Shown here piece by piece: positions 10,488 to 26,129 of a stretch of 40,691 bases of DNA. The DNA comes from Flavobacteriales bacterium (GTDB taxonomy: Bacteria; Bacteroidota; Bacteroidia; Flavobacteriales_C; GCA-002722245), in assembly GCA_038154685.1 (NCBI GenBank), contig JAYPYW010000011.1:13908-54598 (forward strand). Direction: 5' to 3'. Position 1 is the first letter of the stretch, and every line of letters begins with the position of its first letter. The notes under the pieces were generated by a model that had not been told where the DNA came from, searched no databases, and saw only the letters and a program-made list of their open reading frames with translations. The position numbers and the translations under genes are program-made.

Positions 10488-12311
10488 TTATTCTGATTGG
10501 ATAATTGAAAAGCTTGTACGTCTATTTTCCTGATGTTCTTGCTCGGTTTTAGCATCTTTAATTTTTAGTTTTTCTTCACCGTAACCTTTAGCAACTAATC
10601 GCTCAGGATTAATACCATTTTTTATTAAGTACGAAACACAACTTTCAGCCCGTTTCTGAGACAGCTTTTGATTATATCTAGCGCTTCCTCTTGAGTCCGT
10701 GTGAGAAGAAAGTTCGATTTTAAGTTCAGGGTTGTCATTAAGTGTAATTACAAGACTATCAAGGATTTTTTCAGATTCAGGTCTCAAAGACCATTTAGCT
10801 AAATCATACAATATCCCTTCCAAAGTAATCTCTCCTTTTGGGATAGGTTTTAAGTATAAGATTGATTTAAATTCTTGCTGGGATTGTTGGGTTACTAAAC
10901 TATCATACCCTTTAAAATAGCCCTCTTTTTTACCTATCAAATTGTATTTAGTTTTAGGTGTTAAGCTCCATTGTACTTCACCTTTAGAATTGGTTAAATT
11001 AGAGTCAAGTAATACTTCATTAATTAATTGGACTTTAGCCTCCGGAATGATTTCCTTCGTTTCGGAATTCAGAACTGTTACATCAACTAAAATAGAGTAT
11101 GGCTCGAATTTAAAAATATCCAAACAAAGCCCTCTACATGTATCGCACTCATTTCTGTTTGAAGAAACCCATTTTCTATCGTTTTTTTCAGCGTAAAAAA
11201 CATCTTCTTTTCCGGAGTTAATAGGCATTCCTAAATTTCGAACTGTACCATTTGAAGAATCTAAGGCATAAACATCATAACCTCCTATTCCGTTTTCTGA
11301 ATTAGAAGAATAAAAGAAAGTTCCTCCTTCATTAATATAAGGTGAAATATCATCTTGGTGAGTATTTACAATGTTATAATTACTTGCTGAATCAGCATTC
11401 CCGTATTTATCAATATTACAATACCAAATATCCATTAATCCTTTCCCTCCTGACCTATCACTAGCAAAGTAAATTCTTTTTGTTGTATGGTGGTAAAAGG
11501 GGTGAATAGCTCCACCTTTGTTAATGTTATCATTTAATTTTCTAGGCTGAGTATAAGCGCCATTAATCTTTTGAGTAAAATAAAGTTGGGAGTTTCCTTT
11601 TACATTGCTCGCGAAATAAATAATATGATTAACGGTATCTTCAGTAAAACTTGAAATCCCTTGTTTCCATTTCCCGATTACAATGGTTTCCGTTGAATTT
11701 ATATTATTTCCATCTATTAAAACCTCATGAAGTTCAGAAGAATAACCATCATTTAAAACAATCGCTTTTTCAGAGGGGGTTAAATTATATATCGATTTTA
11801 ATTGGCTAGAAACACGGTAAACATTAATAGTTTTTTTAGCTAATTTTTCTAATTCAACTTTACCCTTTTCAGCAATTCTCTTATCAATAATGGAAGGGTT
11901 AAGATCTAGCACTTTCTGATAATTTTGTTGTGCTATTAAAAGTTTATACTCTAACTGGGTTAACCTTTTATTTAACGGTCTGTTTTCTTTCCTTAAAATT
12001 GAATCTAATTGAGCATATTGGTAGCTATATAATAAAGCTTCAGCCCATTTAATTTTTAAAGAATTAAAAAGTGCTACCGAATCTACCTTTTCAGTGTTTA
12101 TTTGGAATTGTAGGTTAGTTTGGTAAGGGTAGAAATTAACTCCATTACCATTATTATTAGAACCTTGAAAGACTTGTCTATATAAATCAGCCGCCTCAAC
12201 ATACCTCTTTTCTCCGAAAAACTTATCAGCAAAATAAATCTTTTTATTTAGGTCTTGTGCTAACAGGTTAGACCCAATAAATAAGAGCAATATGTAAAAA
12301 AATCTTTTCAT
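10488..12311 (-). CDS. OmpA-family peptidoglycan-binding protein with TPR-like N-terminus, PD40 repeats and carboxypeptidase-regulatory-like domain (PorE-like)
   Basis: Start moved to ATG 12311 (MKRFFYILLLFIGSNLLAQ), which overlaps the upstream TAA. IYFASDRSGGKGLMDIW and NLGMPINS (PD40); IELSSHTDSRGS..YNQKLSQKRA...GYGE...NRR (OmpA C-terminal domain). Confidence 0.9.
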   Translation of the reverse strand: MKRFFYILLLFIGSNLLAQDLNKKIYFADKFFGEKRYVEAADLYRQVFQGSNNNGNGVNFYPYQTNLQFQINTEKVDSVALFNSLKIKWAEALLYSYQYAQLDSILRKENRPLNKRLTQLEYKLLIAQQNYQKVLDLNPSIIDKRIAEKGKVELEKLAKKTINVYRVSSQLKSIYNLTPSEKAIVLNDGYSSELHEVLIDGNNINSTETIVIGKWKQGISSFTEDTVNHIIYFASNVKGNSQLYFTQKINGAYTQPRKLNDNINKGGAIHPFYHHTTKRIYFASDRSGGKGLMDIWYCNIDKYGNADSASNYNIVNTHQDDISPYINEGGTFFYSSNSENGIGGYDVYALDSSNGTVRNLGMPINSGKEDVFYAEKNDRKWVSSNRNECDTCRGLCLDIFKFEPYSILVDVTVLNSETKEIIPEAKVQLINEVLLDSNLTNSKGEVQWSLTPKTKYNLIGKKEGYFKGYDSLVTQQSQQEFKSILYLKPIPKGEITLEGILYDLAKWSLRPESEKILDSLVITLNDNPELKIELSSHTDSRGSARYNQKLSQKRAESCVSYLIKNGINPERLVAKGYGEEKLKIKDAKTEQEHQENRRTSFSIIQSE

Positions 12312-13300
12312 TAAAATATCGAACAACCCTTTTTAGTTTGAATATTGTCATTAAACTTCAAATTGTACAAAATTGAAAGTTCAAACGCACCATTACCTTG
12401 GTTATAATTAGCAAGTCCAGAAACTGTGTAATCATAGGAGAATCCGTATTGCCATTGGTCGTTTTTTAGCCCTAACATCCCTACAATGGCATCATCATTT
12501 CGGTAGCTTATTCCCAATAAAACCGCTCTCTTTTCGTTCCAATCTATTTGATTAATTATATCAAATAATAAAACTTCTGCTAGTTGCTGCTCCATATAAA
12601 TGAATTGTGTTTTCAGTTTATAATTGTCAGTAACCCTTGTTTCAGCTCCGATATTAGCAGTGACTCTATCTGGAAGGATAGCATTTTGCTCAAGTAGTGA
12701 CTCGTTAACCGAACTTAAATGAAAATAGCTAAATCCAAAGTAAGGAGAAGTTTTAAACTTACTGTTAAAGTAAAAGTAGTTTACACCAATATTAAAATCA
12801 GCAACCATTACATTAAGTTTGGTATTGGCAAATATTTCCGAAGAAGGTAAACTGAAAGAACCTCCATCACTTGGAGAATATTGATCGGGTAAATTTAAAG
12901 TGGTGAAGTCAACGCTTTTATTAAACAACCCTAACGCACCTCCAAAAGCCACATTATGGTAATTAAATAATTCTTTATTGTATGAAAGATTTAATCTTGC
13001 TGTAAAAGTTTGGAAACTTCCCTGTCCAGCGACATCATTTATTATAGTTAACCCTGAAGCAATTCGCTTATTATGATATGGGAGTTTATATCCTAAGTTT
13101 AACATGTTAGTTACATATGGCTTATTCATTAAGCTTCTCCACTGATTGCGTGTATGAATTGAAGCTTGAATATCTCCATCAAAACTTCCTGTGTAAGAAG
13201 AATTGATAAAACTTGGCGCAGTGTAGTATTGCGAAAGATGATAATCTTGCGCTAAACTTACCGATGAGGTAAAAAGTAATATGTAAATCAATCTTCTCAT
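12311..13300 (-). CDS. PorP/SprF family T9SS outer-membrane beta-barrel
   Basis: AQDYHLSQYY.AP..IN...G, RNQW, and GFSYDYTVSGL...G.FELSI.Y are typical of PorP/SprF. It lies directly downstream of a type B CTD protein, the usual arrangement. Confidence 0.92.
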   Translation of the reverse strand: MRRLIYILLFTSSVSLAQDYHLSQYYTAPSFINSSYTGSFDGDIQASIHTRNQWRSLMNKPYVTNMLNLGYKLPYHNKRIASGLTIINDVAGQGSFQTFTARLNLSYNKELFNYHNVAFGGALGLFNKSVDFTTLNLPDQYSPSDGGSFSLPSSEIFANTKLNVMVADFNIGVNYFYFNSKFKTSPYFGFSYFHLSSVNESLLEQNAILPDRVTANIGAETRVTDNYKLKTQFIYMEQQLAEVLLFDIINQIDWNEKRAVLLGISYRNDDAIVGMLGLKNDQWQYGFSYDYTVSGLANYNQGNGAFELSILYNLKFNDNIQTKKGCSIF

Positions 13301-16300
13301 TACCTTACAAGTGTGATATCACCTGTTTCTCTATATTTAGTTCCATCAAGTAAAGTACCTTCAAGTGTATATACATAAACACCATTTGGTTGAATTTCAC
13401 CTTTAAAATTCCCATCCCAACCTGTTCCAGGATCAAGGGATTGAAACACTTGTTGTCCCCATCGATTGTAAATAGTAAAAATCACATCCTGATATGGACC
13501 ACCTTGAATAGGAACAACATCATTAATATTATCTCCATTTGGAGTGAATACCGAAGCAATTTTCGGAGGAGTTTTAACTATAAGAGGAAGAGAAATAACA
13601 TCTAAACAGCCATTTGATTTTGATGCCGTAAGGGTAACAACAAACACCCCCGTATCTTGATAATTATATACAATCTGATTTCCTTCATCAAACCCAATAC
13701 CATCACCCAAATCCCATTCGAAAATTGAAGCATTTTGAGCATTTTCTGTTAGCGTTACATCTAATCCTAATTGAACAGATGAAGGACTGAAATTAAAATT
13801 CGCTACTGGTAAATCTCCATCAATTTCCACTACAACAGTGGTGTCATTAATACAGCCTAAAGAATCGGTTACCGTCAATTTAACAGGATATCCTCCAGGA
13901 ACGCTATATAGAACATTTGAAGTTTGAATAGAATCAAATTCCCCATTACCGAAATCCCAGAACAACCCTAATTGATCTGAATTTTCTGAATAAGCAGTAC
14001 TTGTAAATATAGTTGAGTCACCGAAGCAAACACCATTAAAATCAAAATTAACAACTGGGAGAGGGTAAACAATTAATGAGTCTGAAAGTGTATCTCTACA
14101 ATTAAAATCACTTACTACAACTTGTGTTATTAAATAAGTTGAGTCTTTTGCGAAATAAAATTCAAAACTATCTTTCTCGATGACACTTTCATTTATTATC
14201 CATAATGTCGAATCGATTTCACCACTTGAGACAAAGGCAGTAGAATTAAATTTAGCCGCTTCATTTAAACAATGATTAAACAATTCAAAATTTGCCTTTG
14301 GTTTCGGGTATAAATCAAACTCTCTTGTTAAAGTATCCATACAGCCGTTACTTGTGTTAACAATTAACTCAACAGTATACTCTCCATCTATACTGTATTG
14401 TTTGCTTGGATTTTGAATGCTCGAAAAAGTACCATCTCCAAAGTTCCAATGCCATTCTGAAATATCTTCTCCAGGAATAGTTGAAGCGTCAATAAAGAAT
14501 ACAGAATCCTCAAAACATTCAGCTAAAACATTGAAATTTGCCTCCGGACCTTTGTAAATACTAATTGATTTATTTGTTGTATCTCTACAGCCTTTATCTG
14601 TTTCAATAATAAGGGAAACTTCATAGATACCATCCATTATAAAACTGTGTACAGGATTCTGGTTAGTACTCTGAAAACCATTATCAAAATCATACAACCA
14701 ATTTGATATAATTCCACTTTTAACAGAACTACTATCATTAAAGGCTAATAATCCTCCTATACAACCAGATTCACTTCCAAAATTAGCAACTGGATTAGGG
14801 AAGAAACTTAAATCCTTTTCAATAGAGTCAACACATCCATTAATTGAAGTGACTTTAAGTTCTACTGAAAAATCCCCTCCTGCTGTATAATTATGTTTCG
14901 CGTTTTCAATATTAGAAACACTTCCATCTCCAAATTTCCACTCATAACTCAATGCCCCACTTGGAACACTAGAAGTGTTATAAAATTCCACTGAATCTCC
15001 AAAGCAAACACTTGGAGCTAAAAAGTTAGCTATTGGTTTTGGTTGTGCGTTAATCTCATAAGTATTTGAATCCACACAACCATTTAAAGTTGTTACAATC
15101 AATGTAACATTATAGGTTCCATCAGTAGCATATAAATGATTTATTTCTCCCCCTGATTTTGTTGTCTCATCACCAAGTTTCCACACTTGGTTAACTATTG
15201 AATCATTTGTAGACAAGGTTAAACTTTTGAAATTAATCGAATCATTATAGCACGCTTCAATTGAACTAACACTAATAATTGGTTTACCCCAAACATTAAT
15301 TTCCCTTTCAACGGAATCCACACAATTATTATTTGAAGTTGCAATTAACTTAACAACATAGGTAGAGTCTTTTAAATAACTGTTATTTGGATTAATTCCA
15401 CTACTAATATTACCATCACCAAAGTCCCAAGAATAATCAATTATACTTCCACTTGAAATAGTAGTTAAATTCAAAAAGGCATTGGTAGAATCTTCACAAA
15501 CTTCCTCGGTAATGAAATCAACAACAGGAGCAGGATAAATATCAACCGACTTTATTAAACTATCAACACAGCTTTGATCAGTTGTTGCGATTAATTTTAT
15601 AGTATAATTTCCTGGTGTGTAAAGTTTTGTTGGATTTTGATCAGTGGATGATGTTCCATCTCCTAAATCCCAATTCCAACTATTAATAGATCCATAACTA
15701 GCTAATGAGTTATCAATAAATGTAACCGAATCAATAAAACATTGCGGGGCAGCGGCGAAATCGATCAGAGGGACTGACCAAGAGGTTATGGTTTTTGTAA
15801 TCGAATCTTTACACCCATTACTAGTTTCAACAATCAATTCAACATTAAAAACGGTATCGGAGCTAAATGTATTGATAGGGTTTTGTAAAATTGAATTAGA
15901 CCCATCTCCAAAATCCCAAGTCCAATTAGAAATGAAGTCTCCTGTAATGGAAGAGTTGTCTGTAAACACAACCGGTGAATCTTCACAAGATTCTACAGCG
16001 TTAAAATCCGCTACTGGTGCAGGGTAAATATCCACTGATTTTATTATTGAATCCGTACATCCTCTATTGGTACTAGCAGTAAGTTTTATACTATAATTTC
16101 CTGGTGTATAAAAGTGGACAGGAGAAGCTTCATTAGAAAAATTACCATCACCTAAATCCCAACTCCATGAATCAACAACACCTAGATTAATGGCTGAGGC
16201 ATTTAAAAACCTAACACTATCTAAAAAACAAACAGGACTTGCATTAAAAGCTAATTCTGGTTTAGACCATGTAGTGATGTTTTTTGTAATTGAATCTGAA

Positions 16301-19300
16301 CATCCATTTGCTGTTGTAACGATTAATTTTACTGGAAAAACCGAATCTGTAATAAAAGTATTTGTTGGGTTTGGAAGAGAAGAAGCATTACCATCTCCGA
16401 AATCCCAAACAAAGCTTGTTATAACATCATCTGTTATCAAAGAAGCATCCGTAAAGCTTGTTGCACTATCCAAACAAACCTCTTTTGCATCAAAATCTGC
16501 TTCTGGAGAGGGATAGATATTTAAATTTTTCTCAAGTGTATCTGAACATCCACCATCGTTACTTACAATTAATTCCACATCGTATTCCCCTGGATTATAT
16601 TTGTGAGCGGGATTAGTTAAAACTGATCCACTTCCATCACCAAAATGCCATTGTACAAAATTAATGTTCCCCAATTTTGATGTGCTTGAATTAGTAAACC
16701 TTACTGAGTCCAAATAACAAGTAGGTAAGGCTGAATAATTTGCTTCTGGAACCGACCAAACCGTAACCGATTTTGTTAAGGAATCAGAGCATCCATTATC
16801 CGAAGTAACCTTCAGGGTTACGTCAAAAATGCTATCATTTGAATACAAGTTATTTGCATTCTGATCAATTGAAGAATTACCATCACCAAAATTCCAATTC
16901 CAATTGGTTAAAGTTCCACTCGAAATTGAAGTATTATCAATAAAATTCATCTCAGTTCCTAAACAAACATCAGAAACATTAAAGTCAACTTTGGGACCAT
17001 AGAAAACATCTAAATCTTGAACAATTGAATCAGAACACCCCTTATCTGTCTCCACAACTAGTTTTACATTATACGTTCCTGGAGCGAACATTTTCTTTAG
17101 ATTTTGCTTAGTAGAAAACTCACCTGTTCCAAAATCCCAATTCCAACTATCAATTATCCCAAAATCTGCAGAGGACAAATCAACAAAGTCTACAGAATCC
17201 ACAAAACATTGAGGCGCAGCATTAAAATTTGGGGTTGGAACAGACCAAACCGGAACATACTTAGTAATTGTATCCTTACAATTATTTGCTGTTGTAACGG
17301 TAAGAGATACTAAGTACACAGAATCAATAGCGTAAATAAAATTTAAATTCTTTGCTGAACTGGTTTCTCCATTTCCTAGATTCCAATCCCATGCTGTAAT
17401 CACATCACTTGATACAACCGAAGAATCAATTAATTGAGTAGAGTCCCCAAAACAAACCTGATTGAATCCAAAATTCGCTACGGGTGCCGGATAAATATCA
17501 AGTGATTTCACAATAGAGTCTCTACAACCATTGTTTGATTCAACCTTCAAATTAATATTATATTTCCCTGGAGTATAAAGCTTTTTGGGATACTGATCAT
17601 TAGAGTTAGTTCCATCCCCTAAATTCCATTCCCAAATTGCAATTGAACCATTTTGAAGAGTTGTTAAATCGTTAAATTGAACTGAATCAATAAAACATTG
17701 AGGGTCGGCTTCAAAATTTGCAATTGGATTTGAAAATACTTCAATGGAATCGATAATTGAATCCTTACAATTATTAGCACTTGTAACAACTAACTGGACA
17801 CGGAAAATAGAGTCGTTTAGATAGGTATGTGAGGGATTTTGAAGAGATGATAATGTCCCATCACCAAAATCCCATAACCATTGGCTAATAACATCTCCAG
17901 AAATATTAGATGAATCTGTAAAATTCATCGAAACTCCTTGACAAACCTCAGTAAAATCAAAATCTGCTACTGGCGAAGGATATATATCTAAGCTTTTTGT
18001 TAAAGAATCAATACAACCAAAATCATTTTGGACAATTAATTTCACATCGTAAGTTCCAGGAGTAAATAGGTGTTTTGGATTTTGTTCTCCGGACGAAGTG
18101 CCATCATCAAAATCCCAAGTCCAAGAGCTCAATTCCCCGAAGGTAGAATTAGAAGAATCAGTAAATGTAACCGAATCGATAAAACACTGAGGAGAACCAC
18201 TAAAATTAACCGTAGGATTAGACCAAACCGTAATTGGTTGAACAGTGGTATCCGAACAGTTATTGGCAGTTTTAACAACTAACTGAACATTGTAAATACT
18301 ATCCTTTGCAAATAAATGATTTGGGTTTTCAATAATTGATGTATTCCCATCACCAAAATCCCAAAGGAAGTCTGTAATAATATCACCTGTTACATATGAG
18401 CTGTCATTAAATATTGTATTATCTCCATCACAAACCTCTGATGTATTAAAGTGTGCAATCGGATTTGGATTTAATGTAAAGGCATTTGTAAGGGAATCCG
18501 AACAACCAAATACTGACGTTGCTACTAATTTGATATTGTAAACCCCTGGGCTGTATAAATGTTTAAGCGAATCTTGATTAGACGTATTCCCATCACCTAA
18601 GTCCCAGGCATAATTACTAATAGATCCATTTTTGATTGTCACATTTCCGTTTAGCTCAATTGAATCAATGAAACACTCAGGCGTAACAGCAAAGCTCACC
18701 AAAGGAAGGGAATGAACTTCAATATTTTGAGTAATCGAATCTTTACAACCATTGTCGGATTCAACAACCAATTTGACTTCAAAAAGGGAGTCGTTGGCAA
18801 AAGTTCGATTTGGATTTTGAAGACTTGAAGTGGTACCATCACCAAAATCCCAAGTCCAGTAAGTAATTATTCCCGTATTAATTTTAGATGTATCTATAAA
18901 ATTGTTTGTACCTCCTAAACAAACTTCCGAAGTCTCAAATCCTGCCTCAGGTCCTGGAAAAATTGAAACAGACTTTGAAACTGAGTCTGTACATCCAGAA
19001 TCAGATGAAAGAACTAATTTTACAGTATAATCTCCTGGAACGTAAAGGTGGGTTGGACAGGTATCATTAGAAAAACTCCCATCTCCTAAATCCCACGAGT
19101 AAGATGTAATACTTCCATTTTTAATCGTACTCGAATCAACTATCTTAACAGAATCTAATACACATTGTGAAGCTCCGATAAAATCAGGAACTGGATTAGA
19201 GTTAACAGTAACTGTCCGGCTTAAAGTATCCTTACAACCATTATTTGAGGTAGTGATCAATTCAACGGTATAGGTAGAATCTACGCTATAAATATGATTT

Positions 19301-21591
19301 GGATTTTGTATTGTAGATGTGTTTTCATCTCCAAAATCCCAATTCCAGTTTGTAATTGTCCCTGAAGAAATAGAACTAGCATCTAAAAAATTATTAGCAT
19401 TTCCTAAACAAATATTAGTAGTGGAAAAACGAGTTACTGGAGAAGGATAAATATCCATATTCTTACTCACCGAATCAGCACATCCTTTGTTGGTTATTAT
19501 ATTTAATTCAACTGTATAGTTTCCAGGACTATACATATTACCAGTATTTTGTTCAGTTGATGTTTTCCCATCTCCTAAGTCCCATTCCCAACTTGTAATA
19601 GAACCAAAAACAACAGAACTTCCATCATTTAGAAAAACAGAATCTTGAAAACAAAGTGGCGCCGCGATAAAATCAACAACTGGAATAGACCAAACTGTGT
19701 CTTCTTTGATAATCGTATCCTTACAACCAAATGCATCCTCAACAATCAATTCAATAGTGAATTCACCATCACTTGTGTAAGAATGATTAGGATTTTGAAC
19801 AATCGAACTATTTCCATCTCCAAAATCCCAATTCCAATTACTTATTGTCCCTTTTGGAACTGTGCTTAAATCCGTAAACGATTTTGATTCCCCTTCACAA
19901 ATTTCGGTAAACGAGAAATTTGCGGAAGGCAAGAAACCAAAAGTTAAATTTTGATTTGTAGTGTCTTTACACCCAAAAGAGTTTTCAACTATCAACTCTA
20001 CGGTATAATTACCCCCAGCCCCATACTCATGTGTAGGATTACTAACATTTGATGTATTAGCATCCCCAAAACTCCATGTCCAATTAATTATCGAGCCGCT
20101 TTCAGAAGAAGACGTATCAAAAAACCTTGCTGAATCTTCCAAACATAAATCTCCTGTTGTAAACCCAGCATTTATGTTTGGCAGCACTTTAACAACTTTC
20201 GAAATAGTATCCGAACACACTCCATTTGAAGTAACGATTAACTCAACATCATAATCATTAAAGCTACCATATGTATAGATTGGGTTTTCCAAAGAATTGG
20301 TAGCTCCATTACCAAATTTCCATGCAAAGGATGGACTTCCCCCGGCGTCATAGGTGGAAGTATTATTAAAAACTGTTGCATTTCCAAAACAAACCGAATC
20401 AGCATTAAAGTTGGCAATAGTAGCAGGCAAAATGGTTAATTTAACAGAATCAACTACTTCTGAACAGCCTCCATTTCCAGTGGATGTTAAATATAGAGTT
20501 ACTAACCCACTACTTATTTCTGCTGGAGTTGGCGTATAGGTAACATCCGTCGTGTCAGCTTTCGGAGAATATATTCCTGCTCCCCCACTCCATAAACCAC
20601 CAGTAGCTTGCGTAACTGTTCCATCCAAAATAAAACTCGGCGAATTAGAGCAAATTGTTTGGTTATCTCCAGCCTCAACTGTAATAGGCGCTCCCTGAGC
20701 AGTTACCGTTATTGTATCATAAACAGCTGGACAATCATCCACATCCGTCACAATTAACGAATAAGTTCCAACTCCAACGTCAATTGAATCATTTGTTGAT
20801 CCATTACTCCATTGGTATGAAAATGGTGGTGCACCACCGGTTATACTTGGGTAAATTTGAACTGTAGATTCTCCAAAACAGATTTGTGGATTTTCAGGAA
20901 GAATCGACAATGATTTATCACTAATAAACTTAACATTAACTGTATCCCTTATTGTATCAATTGAACAAGCGCCCTCTAAAAGCCCACTCAATTCGTATAA
21001 AACAGAATCGGGAGCTCCAGAATCATATGTAACAATTGTTGTATCGCAACCTGATGTACAACTTAAGTATGCATCATATGCAGGATTAGCAATAGCTCTC
21101 CACCTTATAGTGCTTTCAACAAATCCTGAAGTACCAAGGGTATCAGTACAAGCATCCGTAACATAAATTGGATCTGATAAATCAGGTCTTCCTATCGCCG
21201 TTAAAGTATATTCATTAGTGTTATTACCAGGTTTACAAAACGTTATTCTATGAGGTCCAACACCGCTCAAACAAATTGTATCACCAACTGGAGTAGGATC
21301 ATTACATCCTATTTCATAAAATAATGCACCAGGGGGAACTGCCCCATCGCTGATACTAAATTTAATTCCTGTTGTGTAAGGGTTTAAGGTAACAACAAAT
21401 TCTGCGCAATTATCCGATCCTGTTGCAGTACAGCAGTGACCATCTCTTTTAAAATACGGACTAACCCATACTGAATCTGCGTTATTTGATAAATCAATGG
21501 TATATGATGGTGTAATCGGATCACACTGACCAATTAATTTTTGAGCGTAGCCCAAAAAAAGAAGCAATATAATTATCCCCCAATTTTTCAC
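13300..21591 (-). CDS. Giant PKD-repeat surface adhesin with gliding-motility-associated (type B, CHU_C) C-terminal domain
   Basis: Likely start is the in-frame GTG at 21591 (MKNWGIIILLLFLGYAQKLIGQC); the ORF track starts at TTG 21657. About 28 PKD-like units with W.WDFGDG..S..QNP.H.Y; C-terminal FTPNGDNIND...IYNRWG...WDG..KG....GVYVY. Confidence 0.93.
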   Translation of the reverse strand: MKNWGIIILLLFLGYAQKLIGQCDPITPSYTIDLSNNADSVWVSPYFKRDGHCCTATGSDNCAEFVVTLNPYTTGIKFSISDGAVPPGALFYEIGCNDPTPVGDTICLSGVGPHRITFCKPGNNTNEYTLTAIGRPDLSDPIYVTDACTDTLGTSGFVESTIRWRAIANPAYDAYLSCTSGCDTTIVTYDSGAPDSVLYELSGLLEGACSIDTIRDTVNVKFISDKSLSILPENPQICFGESTVQIYPSITGGAPPFSYQWSNGSTNDSIDVGVGTYSLIVTDVDDCPAVYDTITVTAQGAPITVEAGDNQTICSNSPSFILDGTVTQATGGLWSGGAGIYSPKADTTDVTYTPTPAEISSGLVTLYLTSTGNGGCSEVVDSVKLTILPATIANFNADSVCFGNATVFNNTSTYDAGGSPSFAWKFGNGATNSLENPIYTYGSFNDYDVELIVTSNGVCSDTISKVVKVLPNINAGFTTGDLCLEDSARFFDTSSSESGSIINWTWSFGDANTSNVSNPTHEYGAGGNYTVELIVENSFGCKDTTNQNLTFGFLPSANFSFTEICEGESKSFTDLSTVPKGTISNWNWDFGDGNSSIVQNPNHSYTSDGEFTIELIVEDAFGCKDTIIKEDTVWSIPVVDFIAAPLCFQDSVFLNDGSSVVFGSITSWEWDLGDGKTSTEQNTGNMYSPGNYTVELNIITNKGCADSVSKNMDIYPSPVTRFSTTNICLGNANNFLDASSISSGTITNWNWDFGDENTSTIQNPNHIYSVDSTYTVELITTSNNGCKDTLSRTVTVNSNPVPDFIGASQCVLDSVKIVDSSTIKNGSITSYSWDLGDGSFSNDTCPTHLYVPGDYTVKLVLSSDSGCTDSVSKSVSIFPGPEAGFETSEVCLGGTNNFIDTSKINTGIITYWTWDFGDGTTSSLQNPNRTFANDSLFEVKLVVESDNGCKDSITQNIEVHSLPLVSFAVTPECFIDSIELNGNVTIKNGSISNYAWDLGDGNTSNQDSLKHLYSPGVYNIKLVATSVFGCSDSLTNAFTLNPNPIAHFNTSEVCDGDNTIFNDSSYVTGDIITDFLWDFGDGNTSIIENPNHLFAKDSIYNVQLVVKTANNCSDTTVQPITVWSNPTVNFSGSPQCFIDSVTFTDSSNSTFGELSSWTWDFDDGTSSGEQNPKHLFTPGTYDVKLIVQNDFGCIDSLTKSLDIYPSPVADFDFTEVCQGVSMNFTDSSNISGDVISQWLWDFGDGTLSSLQNPSHTYLNDSIFRVQLVVTSANNCKDSIIDSIEVFSNPIANFEADPQCFIDSVQFNDLTTLQNGSIAIWEWNLGDGTNSNDQYPKKLYTPGKYNINLKVESNNGCRDSIVKSLDIYPAPVANFGFNQVCFGDSTQLIDSSVVSSDVITAWDWNLGNGETSSAKNLNFIYAIDSVYLVSLTVTTANNCKDTITKYVPVWSVPTPNFNAAPQCFVDSVDFVDLSSADFGIIDSWNWDFGTGEFSTKQNLKKMFAPGTYNVKLVVETDKGCSDSIVQDLDVFYGPKVDFNVSDVCLGTEMNFIDNTSISSGTLTNWNWNFGDGNSSIDQNANNLYSNDSIFDVTLKVTSDNGCSDSLTKSVTVWSVPEANYSALPTCYLDSVRFTNSSTSKLGNINFVQWHFGDGSGSVLTNPAHKYNPGEYDVELIVSNDGGCSDTLEKNLNIYPSPEADFDAKEVCLDSATSFTDASLITDDVITSFVWDFGDGNASSLPNPTNTFITDSVFPVKLIVTTANGCSDSITKNITTWSKPELAFNASPVCFLDSVRFLNASAINLGVVDSWSWDLGDGNFSNEASPVHFYTPGNYSIKLTASTNRGCTDSIIKSVDIYPAPVADFNAVESCEDSPVVFTDNSSITGDFISNWTWDFGDGSNSILQNPINTFSSDTVFNVELIVETSNGCKDSITKTITSWSVPLIDFAAAPQCFIDSVTFIDNSLASYGSINSWNWDLGDGTSSTDQNPTKLYTPGNYTIKLIATTDQSCVDSLIKSVDIYPAPVVDFITEEVCEDSTNAFLNLTTISSGSIIDYSWDFGDGNISSGINPNNSYLKDSTYVVKLIATSNNNCVDSVEREINVWGKPIISVSSIEACYNDSINFKSLTLSTNDSIVNQVWKLGDETTKSGGEINHLYATDGTYNVTLIVTTLNGCVDSNTYEINAQPKPIANFLAPSVCFGDSVEFYNTSSVPSGALSYEWKFGDGSVSNIENAKHNYTAGGDFSVELKVTSINGCVDSIEKDLSFFPNPVANFGSESGCIGGLLAFNDSSSVKSGIISNWLYDFDNGFQSTNQNPVHSFIMDGIYEVSLIIETDKGCRDTTNKSISIYKGPEANFNVLAECFEDSVFFIDASTIPGEDISEWHWNFGDGTFSSIQNPSKQYSIDGEYTVELIVNTSNGCMDTLTREFDLYPKPKANFELFNHCLNEAAKFNSTAFVSSGEIDSTLWIINESVIEKDSFEFYFAKDSTYLITQVVVSDFNCRDTLSDSLIVYPLPVVNFDFNGVCFGDSTIFTSTAYSENSDQLGLFWDFGNGEFDSIQTSNVLYSVPGGYPVKLTVTDSLGCINDTTVVVEIDGDLPVANFNFSPSSVQLGLDVTLTENAQNASIFEWDLGDGIGFDEGNQIVYNYQDTGVFVVTLTASKSNGCLDVISLPLIVKTPPKIASVFTPNGDNINDVVPIQGGPYQDVIFTIYNRWGQQVFQSLDPGTGWDGNFKGEIQPNGVYVYTLEGTLLDGTKYRETGDITLVR

Positions 21592-21758
21592 ACAACTAAT
21601 TTTTCCCCAGCCTATTCTACAGAAAAATAGGTATTTAGTTACAAAATAGCATTTCAAACGAAATAACGAAGTAGCTTATGTAGCTCCTGATTTTATTAGC
21701 TAATACTTGAGATTAAATGACAAGAGAGCACTTTAAACATTATACTTGAAATAGAGTA

Positions 21759-21937: not shown

Positions 21938-21967
21938 AAAAAAAAGAAGTCTCCTTGAGGAGACTTC
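21938..21967 (-). terminator. Intrinsic terminator of the Cys-rich peptide transcript
   Basis: Perfect 9-bp stem GAAGTCTCC-ttga-GGAGACTTC (21946-21967) followed on the minus strand by T8, 22 nt after the stop at 21990. Confidence 0.85.
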
Positions 21968-21989
21968 AAATCATATTAAAACTTACCAA

Positions 21990-22148
21990 TTATTTCCCAC
22001 AAGAGGAACATCCGCAAGCTGTTTTACAAATGCAGTTTTCTGTTTTACTACAATTGCAACTTTCATCACTGTTATTAGTTGAATTTAATCCATAAACAGT
22101 TGTTGCTAAACCTATTGCCATAAAGGCGATTGCTAAATATTTTTTCAT
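21990..22148 (-). CDS. Small exported Cys-rich metallothionein-like peptide (52 aa)
   Basis: Below the ORF-track cut-off. MKKYLAIAFMAIGLATTVYGLNSTNNSDESCNCSKTENCICKTACGCSSCGK*: Sec-type signal peptide, 7 Cys as CxC-CxC-CxCxxC, A-rich initiation region (TTTTAAAATAGAAATAAAATG) and its own terminator. Confidence 0.8.
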   Translation of the reverse strand: MKKYLAIAFMAIGLATTVYGLNSTNNSDESCNCSKTENCICKTACGCSSCGK

Positions 22149-22193
22149 TTTATTTCTATTTTAAAATTAAACTTATGTTAAATAAAGTAGTTC

Positions 22194-22556
22194 TCAAGAA
22201 ATAGAATGAATTGGCGGTTTATAAGGTTTATGGTTAAATATGTACTTGTACATACTGTTGTAGATATCTACAACTTCGGTATTAATATTTAAAGATTTGA
22301 ATTTAAATGCGGGGGGTTTTTCGTTTTTTAAAACCAGCTTTAAGCAACAACAATTCGAAGTGCATTGACCAGCACAATTTTCATTATCATCCGATTGGCT
22401 TTGACAACTTTTATCAGCAACTTCTTTTTTTGCACAACACGAATCCAATTCCATTTTTTCGGTTTCAGCTTTCATAGATCCAGAAGAATAAAAAGGCATT
22501 TGCGTAACTGCAAATCCTAAAAACAAAACCAATGCTATTTTGATGAAATTCTTCAC
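22194..22556 (-). CDS. Cys-rich protein with N-terminal hydrophobic segment and C-terminal PP motif (DUF2946 / HYC_CC_PP-like)
   Basis: Likely start GTG 22556 (MKNFIKIALVLFLGFAVTQ); SCCAKK...SC...NCAGQCTSNCCC; ends KPYKPPIHSIS*. Confidence 0.7.
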   Translation of the reverse strand: MKNFIKIALVLFLGFAVTQMPFYSSGSMKAETEKMELDSCCAKKEVADKSCQSQSDDNENCAGQCTSNCCCLKLVLKNEKPPAFKFKSLNINTEVVDIYNSMYKYIFNHKPYKPPIHSIS

Positions 22557-22676
22557 ATTGATTAAAATAGATGTTTTTAGTAAACGGATCAAATTAAATC
22601 TATTTTTTAACTTCATTTTAACAAAAAACACAACAGACCAATCATACTATTTTAACAAAGATTATTTTTACCAGAT

Positions 22677-23120
22677 ATGAAAAACAGTCATAACTACACA
22701 TTATCCCTAAAATGGTTGGGCAATGAGCAATCTGTTAATCATAGAGAAGATCGTATTTATGAAATTAGTATTGAAGGTAAGCCACTTTTAAAAGGATCTG
22801 CAGATAAACCATTTTTTGGGGATCCTAGGCTTTATAATCCAGAGGACCTTTTATTATCCGCCTTATCATCCTGCCATATGATGTCATTTCTTTACTTATG
22901 TCGCAAAGCGGGAATTAAAGTTAAATCATATACAGACGATCCAATTGGAATCCTTAAGTTGGATAACTATGGAAGCGGCAGATTCGAATCAGTAACTCTT
23001 AAACCTGAAATTGAATTGGTGGACTCGTCGAAAAAAAGTGAAATAGAATCCTTGCATCAAAAAGCAGGAAAGCTCTGCTTCATAGCCAACTCTGTAAATT
23101 TTCCGGTTTACTATAAGTAA
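22677..23120 (+). CDS. OsmC/Ohr-family protein
   Basis: GSADKPFFGD...NPEDLLLSALSSCHMMSFL and LCFIANSV carry the two conserved Cys motifs of the family. Confidence 0.9.
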   Translation: MKNSHNYTLSLKWLGNEQSVNHREDRIYEISIEGKPLLKGSADKPFFGDPRLYNPEDLLLSALSSCHMMSFLYLCRKAGIKVKSYTDDPIGILKLDNYGSGRFESVTLKPEIELVDSSKKSEIESLHQKAGKLCFIANSVNFPVYYK

Positions 23121-24455: not shown

Positions 24456-26129
24456 ATGACTAATTTATTTAAGCAAGCTGGAATTGTATCATTTCTAATT
24501 TCCTTTAATTTAAACGCCCAAGGTGGTTTTACAGAACCTTTAACCATCCCAGACACAATAAACAGTAATACAGTTCATCTTTATGTGAAAGATACTGTAC
24601 ATGAATTTGTTTCGGGAATAGAAACTAATACATACGGAATTAGTGCGTCCTATTTAGGACCAACTATCATAATGGACAAGGGAGATTTTGTGCAATTAAA
24701 CGTTCACAACTTATTGGACGAAACAACTACAATGCACTGGCATGGGATGCACGTTGCGCCTGAAGATGATGGAGGACCTCACACGGCAATTTTAGCCGGA
24801 GAAACTTGGTCGCCCGACTTTACTGTTTTGGATGAAGCTACAACATTTTGGTACCACCCGCACTTACATGAAAAAACCAACGAACACGTTTCTAAAGGCG
24901 CTGCAGGGATGATCATCATAAGAGACGAAGAAGAGGCTGCATTAACTTTACCAAGAACTTACGGTATAGATGATATTCCAATGATATTGCAAAGCAAAGC
25001 TTTTGACGCTTCGTGGCAAATTGAAGTTGGAGGAGGTACTGTAGATGATGTAATGTTGGTAAATGGTGTTATTGAGCCATATGTTGATGTGCCTGCACAA
25101 ATGGTAAGGTTTAGAATGTTAAACGGATCTACCGGAAGAACTTTTAATATCGGTGTTTCAGATAACAGAAATATTTACCAAATTGGATCCGATGGCGGTT
25201 TATTAAACGCTCCTGTTTCTTTGAACAGAATAGTAATAGCTCCAGGAGAAAGAATGGAATTTGTGATCGATTTATCTAGCGATGAAAGTGAGACGCTTTA
25301 CCTTAAAAGTTATGCATCGGAATTCTCAACAGGGATAACAGGGGCTGCTGGTGGCCCTGGTGCTACCAATGTACTAGATGGAGCTGATTTCAACGTATTG
25401 CAATTAAGGGTAACTTCGGCAACAGCTGGAGCTATTACGTCTTTACCTACGGTATTAAACGACTTGGTTCCTATTGCTGAAAGCTCTGCAGATTTAACAA
25501 GAACGCTTACGCTTGATGGAGGTGGACCAGGAAATCCTTTTACAATTGATGGAGAAATAATGGACATGTCAGTTATAAATCAGACTGTTGAATTAGATGC
25601 TACAGAAATTTGGGAGATTGTAAACGAAACACCTATTGCCCATCCATTTCACATCCATGATATTCAATTTTACATTTTAGATAGAGACGGTGTTGCTCCC
25701 CCTGCCAATGAGCAAGGGAGAAAAGATGTTGTTTTTGTTTACCCGGAAGAAACTGTAAGGTTCATTGGAACATTTGAAGACTTTGCCAACGAAGAAATCC
25801 CTTACATGTACCATTGCCATATTTTAACACATGAAGACGGCGGAATGATGGGTCAATTTATCGTTGTAGATAATTCTGAAAGTTCGGTGAATGACATTGA
25901 TGCAAATTCCATTTCGGCTTTCCCTAATCCAACGGAAGGTTCAATAAATATTCAAGCAACCGAAAATGGATCTTACAAAATTACAAACGCTATAGGGCAA
26001 GATGTTTTGCAGGGACTTTACCAAGAGAATTCAAGTATTGATTTAAGCTCTTTGGAAACCGGAATCTATCAATTAGTTGCAACTTCAAATTCTGGATTAA
26101 CATCAACTACGAAAGTGGTTAAGAAATAA
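24456..26129 (+). CDS. Three-domain multicopper oxidase (CueO/laccase-like) with Sec signal and T9SS type A CTD
   Basis: All four copper motifs are present: HWHG, WYHPH, HPFHIH, HCHILTHEDGGMM. C-terminal AFPNPT...GIYQL...TKVVKK. Confidence 0.95.
   Translation: MTNLFKQAGIVSFLISFNLNAQGGFTEPLTIPDTINSNTVHLYVKDTVHEFVSGIETNTYGISASYLGPTIIMDKGDFVQLNVHNLLDETTTMHWHGMHVAPEDDGGPHTAILAGETWSPDFTVLDEATTFWYHPHLHEKTNEHVSKGAAGMIIIRDEEEAALTLPRTYGIDDIPMILQSKAFDASWQIEVGGGTVDDVMLVNGVIEPYVDVPAQMVRFRMLNGSTGRTFNIGVSDNRNIYQIGSDGGLLNAPVSLNRIVIAPGERMEFVIDLSSDESETLYLKSYASEFSTGITGAAGGPGATNVLDGADFNVLQLRVTSATAGAITSLPTVLNDLVPIAESSADLTRTLTLDGGGPGNPFTIDGEIMDMSVINQTVELDATEIWEIVNETPIAHPFHIHDIQFYILDRDGVAPPANEQGRKDVVFVYPEETVRFIGTFEDFANEEIPYMYHCHILTHEDGGMMGQFIVVDNSESSVNDIDANSISAFPNPTEGSINIQATENGSYKITNAIGQDVLQGLYQENSSIDLSSLETGIYQLVATSNSGLTSTTKVVKK

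Follow-up and report, generated by a model that had tools for sequence, protein, structure and literature searches.

The window analysed here is a stretch of 40,691 nucleotides (nt) of contig JAYPYW010000011.1 (assembly GCA_038154685.1, positions 13,908 to 54,598 of the forward strand). It comes from a marine, Flavobacteriales-type bacterium (genome G000), whose genome sequence is 98.4% complete and has a G+C content of 35%. The subject of this work is a pair of small genes on the minus strand of the window, called A (upstream) and B (downstream), which may form a cassette in which a nascent Cys-rich leader protein controls the synthesis of an exported, metallothionein-like peptide. The features of the locus are listed in Table 1.

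Organization of the A-B locus

A first-pass annotation, made from the sequence alone, had described B as an open reading frame of 52 amino acids (aa) with a signal peptide and seven cysteines in 20 residues, followed by its own terminator and located 45 nt downstream of a co-oriented frame. All these features were found in the DNA. The C-terminal YKPP ascribed to A is also present, but the PP is five residues from the stop and not at the very end of the protein. B had been called unannotated: it was indeed missed by the list of open reading frames, but it is already a called protein in a large protein collection (P0003). The hairpin with the T-run behind B is the sole terminator-like site across the 1.2 kb scanned, and a search of Rfam gave only two sub-threshold matches, both at this hairpin.

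Table 1. Features of the A-B locus and their positions in the window
Feature	Position	Strand	Remark
A/T-rich motif GTTAAAAT-N3-GTTAAAAAATAG	22600-22622	-	upstream of A; candidate promoter/operator
Gene A	22194-22556	-	GTG start, 120 aa; predicted exported or membrane-anchored Cys-rich protein
N-terminal signal peptide or anchor of A (predicted)	22500-22556	-	residues 1-19
Cys cluster of A	22344-22439	-	residues 40-71: SCC, C51, C61-x3-C65, CCC69-71
C-terminal block of A, D-x-Y-x3-Y-K-Y-x-F-x5-K-P-P-I	22209-22268	-	residues 97-116; candidate arrest sequence
KPP codons of A	22212-22220	-	inside the C-terminal block
5' arm of the stem	22197-22210	-	final 14 nt of the A coding sequence, codons I-H-S-I-S
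Stop codon of A	22194-22196	-	
A-B spacer	22149-22193	-	45 nt, A/T-rich, without terminator
3' arm of the stem	22144-22157	-	B leader -9 to -1, ATG (22148-22146), +4 to +5
Gene B	21990-22148	-	52-aa precursor
Signal peptide of B (predicted)	22089-22148	-	residues 1-20
Mature B (predicted)	21993-22088	-	32 aa, 7 Cys
Intrinsic terminator 3' of B	21938-21967	-	9-bp G+C-rich stem, 4-nt loop, T-run

Occurrence and conservation of the gene pair

The same genome contains a second A-B pair on another contig (C29; locus L004, 1519-2083), beside an M20 peptidase gene at the contig end, with 41% (A) and 68% (B) identity to the proteins of the window. A genome of the same genus holds the ortholog of this second pair only (L006/L009). 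In this copy (L006, 1489-1866) the stop codon of A has been lost, and A, reading into the spacer, is seven residues longer (…IHFISFKRNALI); the database protein P0013 (73 aa) derives from this gene by truncation or a frameshift. A metagenome scan seeded with the B alignment yielded three loci, each with A directly upstream of B. Thus, conserved homologues and conserved synteny were both found, as the two-gene module of the first-pass annotation implied: in each of the six loci A is the gene immediately upstream of B, in the same orientation and separated from it by 28-55 nt (28 nt where the stop of A has shifted seven codons downstream); in all six a hairpin and T-run, identified by inspection, follow B. 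The flanks differ at every locus. In the window they comprise genes for OsmC, Omp85 and a giant protein of the type IX secretion system (T9SS), at the other loci genes for M20 peptidase, PfkB kinase, AhpC/TSA, GT2, methyltransferase and Fic-like proteins.

The ratio of non-synonymous to synonymous substitution rates (dN/dS) was below 1 in all computable pairs, both for A (0.13-0.72; 12 of 15 pairs) and for B (0.12-0.75; 13 of 15 pairs), dS being saturated in the remainder. Both genes are real and under purifying selection.

The longest A frame begins at 22631, and the database entry P0001 begins at the ATG at 22616 (140 aa); A has 120 aa from the GTG and 140-145 aa from the alternative starts. 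The GTG at 22556 was favoured as the start codon because in the paralogue a stop codon in the same frame closely precedes the corresponding GTG. Translation from the ATG at 22616 was rejected, since this codon is located in a DNA motif that is conserved where coding is impossible. This A/T-rich motif recurs in similar form in five of the six cassettes (those of the window, L004 at ~1450-1475, L006, L022 and L024), some 45-60 nt ahead of the A start codon, and reads GTTAAAAT, 3-4 nt, GTNAAAAAAT[AT]G. It appears to be conserved as DNA and not as coding sequence, because the paralogue has an in-frame stop between the motif and the A start. The motif may be a promoter or the site of a regulator; there is no obvious match to the -33/-7 consensus of Bacteroidota promoters.

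An exhaustive search with the A profile of 1.84 billion representative sequences gave 20 matches at E<=1e-3. The best 13 of these (E<=5.5e-10) were P0013 and 12 A proteins, either complete or shortened at the N-terminus, in which KPP is followed by 3-6 terminal residues. In P0016, a protein of 900 aa, eight short stretches were matched by the A profile, and this was assumed to be a Cys-rich repeat protein. The B profile found nine clusters among 5.8 billion sequences, all with E<=2.4e-12. The cassette occurs in 2 of 21 genomes of the taxonomic family, and a sample of 400 other genomes of Bacteroidia yielded no member of the A family proper and no B. Six weak matches to the B profile in those 400 genomes (E 7.5e-4 to 0.0095) included four that align to the signal peptide part only; the three that were translated lack the Cys pattern. 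A metagenome scan with an alignment of four A sequences detected no relative, and a GTDB-wide pattern scan gave one locus only, its patterns being too narrow to capture diverged members. Single-sequence, word-indexed searches returned A itself and one match for A, and only B itself for B. The A-B family is very rare.

Two metatranscriptome contigs from different libraries are identical to the window. One (181 nt) corresponds to 22014-22194 and takes in the greater part of B with its start codon as well as the entire spacer as far as the A stop; the other (226 nt) corresponds to 22313-22538, inside A. Such contigs show neither strand nor ends nor abundance, DNA carry-over is possible and uncovered parts mean nothing; they give a weak hint that the cassette is transcribed.

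Gene A and its relatives

The A protein carries eight cysteines (SCC, C, C-x3-C, CCC) and has the tail ...YKYIFNHKPYKPPIHSIS, its C-terminus reading ...YKPPIHSIS with the two prolines at positions 114 and 115 of 120. By eye, its N-terminus consists of a charged n-region and a hydrophobic core of 11 residues, and this part is hydrophobic in all full-length members despite its variable sequence. In the AlphaFold2 model the mean predicted local distance difference test (pLDDT) score was 49.5. A helix of residues 2-18 (pLDDT 75-81) was the sole confident part, residues 23-95 had scores below 50, and no fold was predicted outside the N-terminal helix. The models of A and of B (see below) are of low confidence and neutral on metal-dependent folding.

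In an alignment of 17 A sequences conservation peaks in two places, the Cys cluster and the final ~20 residues up to the PP. C40, C41 and C65 are invariant, C51, C69 and C71 nearly so; in the C-terminal block Y99, Y103, F107, K113, P114 and P115 are invariant, Y105 and I116 nearly so. The distance between the second Cys of C-x3-C and the PP is 48 residues in 12 of the 17 members (range 44-49). PP is present in all 17, followed by five residues in 13 of them (range 3-12). With a ribosome on the Pro codons the conserved tail would occupy the exit tunnel. A is built like the known metal-sensing leader proteins, with a putative signal for export, clustered cysteines, a spacer of constant length and a PP close to the C-terminus.

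Searches of Pfam and NCBIfam with the A protein of the window gave nothing meaningful. None of the 17 A members matched DUF2946 (PF11162) or DUF6660 (PF20365, cut-off 27 bits) at E<=1, and in a six-frame search of the whole genome the best match to DUF6660 (14 bits) was elsewhere than A. HYC_CC_PP (NF047658) did not match the A of the window at E<=1, and no HYC motif is visible in it; one of the 17 members matched this model (E 0.0054). The suggestion that A is a DUF2946-type leader was therefore not borne out, the model searches placing A in none of these three families.

At the profile level A does have relatives. The A profile detects small Bacteroidia proteins ending in ...IW(Q/S/T)PP plus 3-4 residues, with E values of 2e-5 to 3e-7 per genome. 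When the A alignment was compared by hhalign with ten '...IWQPP' Bacteroidia proteins, the two matched end to end over 109 columns (E 9e-16) with a probability of 98.6%, a value that is somewhat inflated because the comparison group had been chosen by its similarity to A. Even so, the alignments clearly show a common architecture, with the hydrophobic N-termini, SCC, C-x3-C, a conserved Tyr and the PP in register. Two of the ten proteins are DUF6660 by Pfam; in NCBIfam one matches CzcI (E 5e-5) and one matches CopL (E 0.046). All five '...IWQPP'-type relatives with known context lie immediately upstream of metal genes. The downstream genes code for an ACR_tran/AcrB-type RND pump, DUF3347+HMBD, DUF3347+AraC-HMA, HMA-DUF3347, and MbnP with a MauG-type di-haem peroxidase.

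Compared with the DUF6660 and HYC_CC_PP proteins, A resembles them in its occurrence in Bacteroidota, its size, the N-terminal hydrophobic segment, the Cys cluster with C-x3-C and the conserved Tyr ~16 residues before the C-terminal PP. It differs in its tail (KPPI plus five residues versus the DUF6660-like IWQPP plus three) and in what lies downstream, a Cys-rich peptide instead of an efflux pump or a DUF3347/HMA gene. These comparisons support a distant, profile-level kinship of A with DUF6660-like metal-operon leaders, and A is best read as a KPPI branch, so far without a model, of the DUF6660/CutF-like assemblage. In the full-text literature no paper was found under 'DUF6660', and the term 'CutF-like' occurred in papers of the CutF authors only.

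A second candidate leader switch was seen in the genus. In genome G007 (L014, 1432-3096) a small open reading frame with a Cys motif, ending in …IEHPPTV, is located directly upstream of genes for MbnP and a MauG-type di-haem peroxidase (MbnH-like), and in the minimum-energy fold its last few codons, together with the stop, are base-paired to the sequence immediately preceding the MbnP start codon.

Predicted pairing between the end of A and the start of B

When the RNA from the KPP codons to position +21 of B was folded, five of the six loci gave one and the same helix, with identical register. It is formed by the final ~14 nt of the A coding sequence (codons I-H-S/F-I-S) with the B leader and ATG; in L024 the ATG is only partly inside the helix, and in one locus the duplex is a perfect one of 14 bp, in which the His codon CAT of A pairs with the ATG of B. 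Minimum-energy folds paired the final codons of A with the B leader in all six loci. The consensus structure computed by RNAalifold was the same 14-bp helix, with 83% of cells paired as opposed to 49-55% when the partner was slid by 1-3 columns. Duplex energies were compared with those of 2650 control pairs from the host genome, each combining a start region with the sequence located 49-72 nt before it; four loci fell in the lowest 1.6% (window), 1.0%, 1.2% and 0.1% of the controls. The probability that the B ATG pairs with the A arm was 0.98 in a fold of the 642-nt transcript of the window, and 0.64, 0.90, 1.00 and 0.59 in partition-function folds (~640 nt) of the other four of the five loci. 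Among the distant relatives, single minimum-energy folds gave a stem between the stop region and the next start in two of five (L007 and L014) and not in the other three. Bacteroidota initiate translation without Shine-Dalgarno pairing.

The B peptide

B begins with a Lys-rich stretch followed by a hydrophobic segment ending in ...TTVYG and a polar segment with seven cysteines in residues 31-50, spaced C-x-C-x5-C-x-C-x3-C-x-C-x2-C. The seven cysteines are invariant in nine B sequences, one member having x4 in place of x3. Judged by eye, the N-terminal 20 residues resemble a Sec signal and are likely to be cut after VYG. The predicted mature peptide (32 aa) contains 22% Cys, arranged in three CxC and one CxxC, and is rich in Asp, Glu, Asn, Ser and Thr. 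It has no aromatic residue in the copy of the window, and some relatives carry one Tyr or Phe. In composition B thus conforms to the metallothionein type (low mass, high Cys content in CxC and CxxC, few aromatics), as the first-pass annotation had maintained, but no metallothionein model or solved structure matches it significantly. A phmmer search of the Protein Data Bank (PDB) with mature B gave no match. When the B profile was compared with 177,635 PDB sequences, the sole match outside the signal peptide was the wheat metallothionein Ec-1, at a non-significant E of 0.2; the alignment covers C-x-C-x3-C-x-C-x2-C and is suggestive only. Looking up B in a protein atlas gave only unnamed clusters, with scores (0.81-0.83) below the informative level, and the AlphaFold2 model had a mean pLDDT of 52.0. 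B appears to have the composition and Cys spacing of a metallothionein without significant homology to one, and would represent a peptide family without known relatives.

The Cys spacing of B is identical to that of the small fungal copper metallothioneins of the family fungi-I. Those of Neurospora crassa and Agaricus bisporus are described as having seven Cys and binding ~6 Cu(I) (PMC13107397), so that they share with B seven Cys in a peptide of ~25-32 residues. The fungal proteins are cytosolic whereas B has a signal peptide, and no search gave significant similarity; the likeness is probably convergent.

Among prokaryotic proteins, B would share Cys-thiolate metal buffering, putative in its case, with SmtA/BmtA, with MymT, which is presumably cytosolic, and with Csp1; it matched neither the bacterial metallothioneins nor Csp1. 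Bacterial metallothioneins are listed as cytosolic Cu ligands, with SmtA as the example, and Csp1 as an exported, Cys-based store of Cu(I) in the part of the source available (PMC7558416). Whereas Csp1 folds into a bundle of four helices and carries a Tat signal, B is predicted to be a Sec-type peptide of 32 residues. No exported or periplasmic bacterial metallothionein was found in the full-text literature; the supplements of the CutF paper, which lie outside that coverage, could list an A-B cluster.

Neighbouring genes

A multicopper oxidase (Cu-oxidase_3, Cu-oxidase_2) with a C-terminal T9SS sorting domain is encoded at 24456-26129 on the plus strand, ~1.9 kb from A, two genes away and in opposite orientation. 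It is the sole copper-related neighbour, and is at most a weak hint at copper since no such gene was seen in up to ~4 kb of flank at the other loci. On the other side, a minus-strand gene (10488-21657) codes for a protein of 2785 aa with dozens of PKD-like repeats and a gliding/T9SS-type C-terminus; followed by genes for PorP/SprF and an OmpA-family protein, it makes up a typical T9SS adhesin operon. Genes of the thiol peroxidase type are near two of the cassettes: OsmC, divergent from A (22677-23120, plus strand), and AhpC/TSA ~2.5 kb downstream (L009, 6381-6875). AhpC_TSA is among the genes reported in DUF2946 operons (PMC9426467), and the proximity may be a coincidence.

Comparison with CruR and CutF

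Two leader systems described in the literature are relevant here. CruR (Bp2923) of Bordetella pertussis, the prototype of DUF2946, senses copper by a CXXC motif of the nascent chain. Its C-proximal RAPP arrests the ribosome, and copper relieves the arrest, upon which Rho terminates transcription before the next gene (PMC9426467). The spacing between CXXC and RAPP is 45 residues, conserved within 1-2 residues, and CruR acts independently of its own signal peptide (PMC9426467). The spacer to the next gene is 162 nt (PMC9973294). CutF of Rhodobacter capsulatus (cutFOG), a member of the DUF2946 superfamily, is exported during translation; when copper binds to its C-x3-C in the periplasm, export is slowed and the ribosome stalls for longer at a C-terminal proline motif (PMC9973294, bioRxiv 10.1101/2025.02.05.636593). 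CutF-like proteins were collected with four filters: a length below 150 aa, PP among the 15 C-terminal residues, a signal peptide and, no more than 1000 nt downstream, a gene on the same strand; 19-40% of the 5,334 proteins were from Bacteroidota (PMC9973294).

Seen against these filters, A has 120 aa (140-145 from the alternative starts), a PP near its end, B 45 nt downstream, and a putative signal peptide, judged by eye and from a helix in the AlphaFold2 model. CutF and A are alike in being small proteins with an export signal (putative in A), C-x3-C, a C-proximal proline motif and a short spacer, and in having an mRNA stem, predicted in the case of A-B, that hides the next initiation region and that a ribosome lingering at the end of the leader would open. 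They differ in several respects. A has no DUF2946 match and ends in KPPI plus five residues, whereas CutF has a PPP/PPR tail. The predicted A-B stem masks the AUG and an A-rich leader, the CutF stem a Shine-Dalgarno sequence, and the 5' arm lies within the leader coding sequence in A, unlike in CutF. Finally, the regulated gene would be that of a 52-aa Cys-rich peptide and not of a multicopper oxidase, and A-B is known from sequence alone. With CruR, A has in common an export signal and a Cys metal motif (both putative in A), a spacer of ~45 residues to the PP and the first position in the operon; the CXXC and RAPP of CruR are absent from A, which has C-x3-C and KPPI instead, 48 residues apart.

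Discussion

We propose that A and B constitute a translational switch of the CutF type, in which the exported, Cys-rich nascent protein A would act as a sensor and control the exported, metallothionein-like B through the dwell of the ribosome at the KPP and stop codons of A and the stem masking the start of B. Taken as a whole, this chain is one that we believe and doubt in about equal measure. In this scheme A and B would be an autonomous, co-transcribed two-gene cassette resembling CutF-cutO, and the export of A would accompany its translation. By the time the Y-x-Y-x-F-x5-KPP-I block is being translated, the Cys cluster, ~45 residues upstream, would have just emerged in the periplasm, where its thiols would bind a soft metal (Cu(I) or Cd/Zn); this would alter the pull on the nascent chain and hence the dwell on the PP codons. 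A ribosome at the PP, or terminating five codons further on, would cover the final 14 nt of A. With Pro114 in the P site ~15 nt downstream would be covered, corresponding to the half of the 5' arm that faces the ATG, and a terminating ribosome would cover the whole arm. Since occupancy of the end of A covers the 5' arm, the start of B would be freed, and the dwell time would set how often this start codon is accessible. B would then be exported by its Sec signal and cut to a peptide of 32 residues with seven Cys and mostly no aromatics, and the mature peptide would bind metal in a thiolate cluster, serving as a periplasmic or released buffer. The present analysis shows that both genes are real, that they are syntenic, that A has its family kinship and conserved spacing, and that the stem is predicted; the kinship of A with metal-operon leaders and the coupling between A and B are the better-supported parts of the scheme. 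We infer the export, the arrest at KPP, the binding of metal by A and B, which metal this would be and whether it would turn B on or off.

A number of observations weigh against this mechanism. The six loci are close kin and not independent, and no metal gene is a conserved neighbour of the cassette across their flanks. The A family and its Bacteroidota relatives are known as sequences only, with no DUF2946 or DUF6660 match among the A members (see above), and KPP-I is to our knowledge not a documented arrest motif. Three mature B peptides gave nothing at E<=10 against Pfam, including its metallothionein families. As for the stem, it is A-U rich, its two arms are also conserved for other reasons (one is coding, the other an A-rich leader), and no compensatory change was found in the six loci. 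Local z-scores were modest (-1.4 to -1.7 in four loci, -4.0 in one and +0.8 in L023). The duplex energies of L023 and L024 were only in the lowest 11% and 7.5% of the controls, respectively. L023 has a shorter helix of 9 bp in another register, which ends before the ATG; there the pairing probability of the ATG was 0.00, the leader pairing with A codons upstream of KPP.

One alternative is plain translational coupling of two exported Cys-rich proteins that act together, in which A is a stable, membrane-anchored metal or redox protein, e.g. a chaperone or loader for B, the stem serves only to tie the synthesis of B to that of A, and there is no metal-regulated arrest. The stem and the short spacer would suffice for this, A is well conserved along its Cys cluster, and the status of KPP-I (see above) favours it as well; moreover, CutF-like proteins need not share one mode of action according to the available text (PMC9973294). 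However, A has no predicted fold past its N-terminal helix, and a mature function explains poorly why conservation is strongest in the last ~20 residues up to the PP and why the distance between Cys and PP is fixed. The relatives of A stand at the head of metal operons that are unrelated to one another, a position typical of leaders and not of partners. Taking all this into account, we consider plain coupling unlikely, but not negligible.

Alternatively, B could be a secreted, disulfide-rich peptide (bacteriocin, toxin or signal) with A as its immunity or maturation partner and without any role for metal. B is small and Cys-rich and has a signal peptide, and the sporadic occurrence of the cassette in differing flanks is reminiscent of accessory genes of competition. 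The genome contains one DSBA-family gene, so that exported cysteines could still be oxidised, which also speaks against metal binding by B. On the other hand, the invariant cysteines are seven, and this odd number fits a thiolate cluster better than a disulfide knot. Neither DsbB nor VKOR was found in the 98.4%-complete genome, and the usual thiol-oxidising pathway is at least not obvious there. The profile-level relatives of A head metal operons, and no transporter, protease or modification gene is conserved near the cassette across the six loci. These results make a disulfide-rich effector improbable.

A mechanism of the CruR type, in which arrest at the PP shields the transcript from Rho and metal, by relieving the arrest, allows termination before B, is another possible reading: the leader anatomy is the same, and the best-studied example works in this way (PMC9426467). 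The first-pass annotation had taken CruR as its model. However, the A-B spacer is short (28-55 nt in the six loci, versus 162 nt in CruR; PMC9973294) and contains hardly any C, which speaks against a CruR-like site for Rho, and a stem predicted to mask the start codon is present instead. The short, C-poor spacer and the stem point to unmasking as in CutF, and Rho-dependent termination before B is in our opinion very improbable. Finally, the abundance of Cys, Ser and Thr in the core might suggest that B is the precursor of a ribosomally synthesized and post-translationally modified peptide, with thioether or other Cys chemistry, a reading to which we give hardly any credit, since none of the six loci contains a gene for a modification enzyme, the flanks are unrelated and the N-terminus resembles a Sec signal and not the leader of such a peptide.

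Returning to the CutF-type switch, B might be the first exported metallothionein of bacteria, with a Cu(I)- or Cd/Zn-thiolate cluster and the seven-Cys layout of the smallest fungal copper thioneins, supplied to the periplasm on demand by an upstream ribosome-arrest sensor; the unit, which measures less than 700 nt between the promoter-like motif and the terminator, would move and duplicate as a self-contained cassette. In this full form the proposal is possible, but we hold it with more doubt than trust. Its reach is limited by rarity, with 12 full A clusters in 1.84 billion and nine B clusters in 5.8 billion sequences.

Leaders of the CutF and CruR kind are a recently recognized means of reading out extracytoplasmic metal through the nascent chain. 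The cargoes reported for them, in the parts of the papers available, are pumps, receptors, chaperones and oxidases (PMC9973294, PMC9426467). What would be new in the A-B cassette is a cargo that itself binds the metal, namely a very small metallothionein exported by Sec. Comprising a single sensor, a single stem, an output of 52 codons and its own terminator, the cassette would be the smallest complete unit of its kind. It would provide a convenient model of force- or ligand-modulated arrest in Bacteroidota and possibly a compact metal-responsive part.

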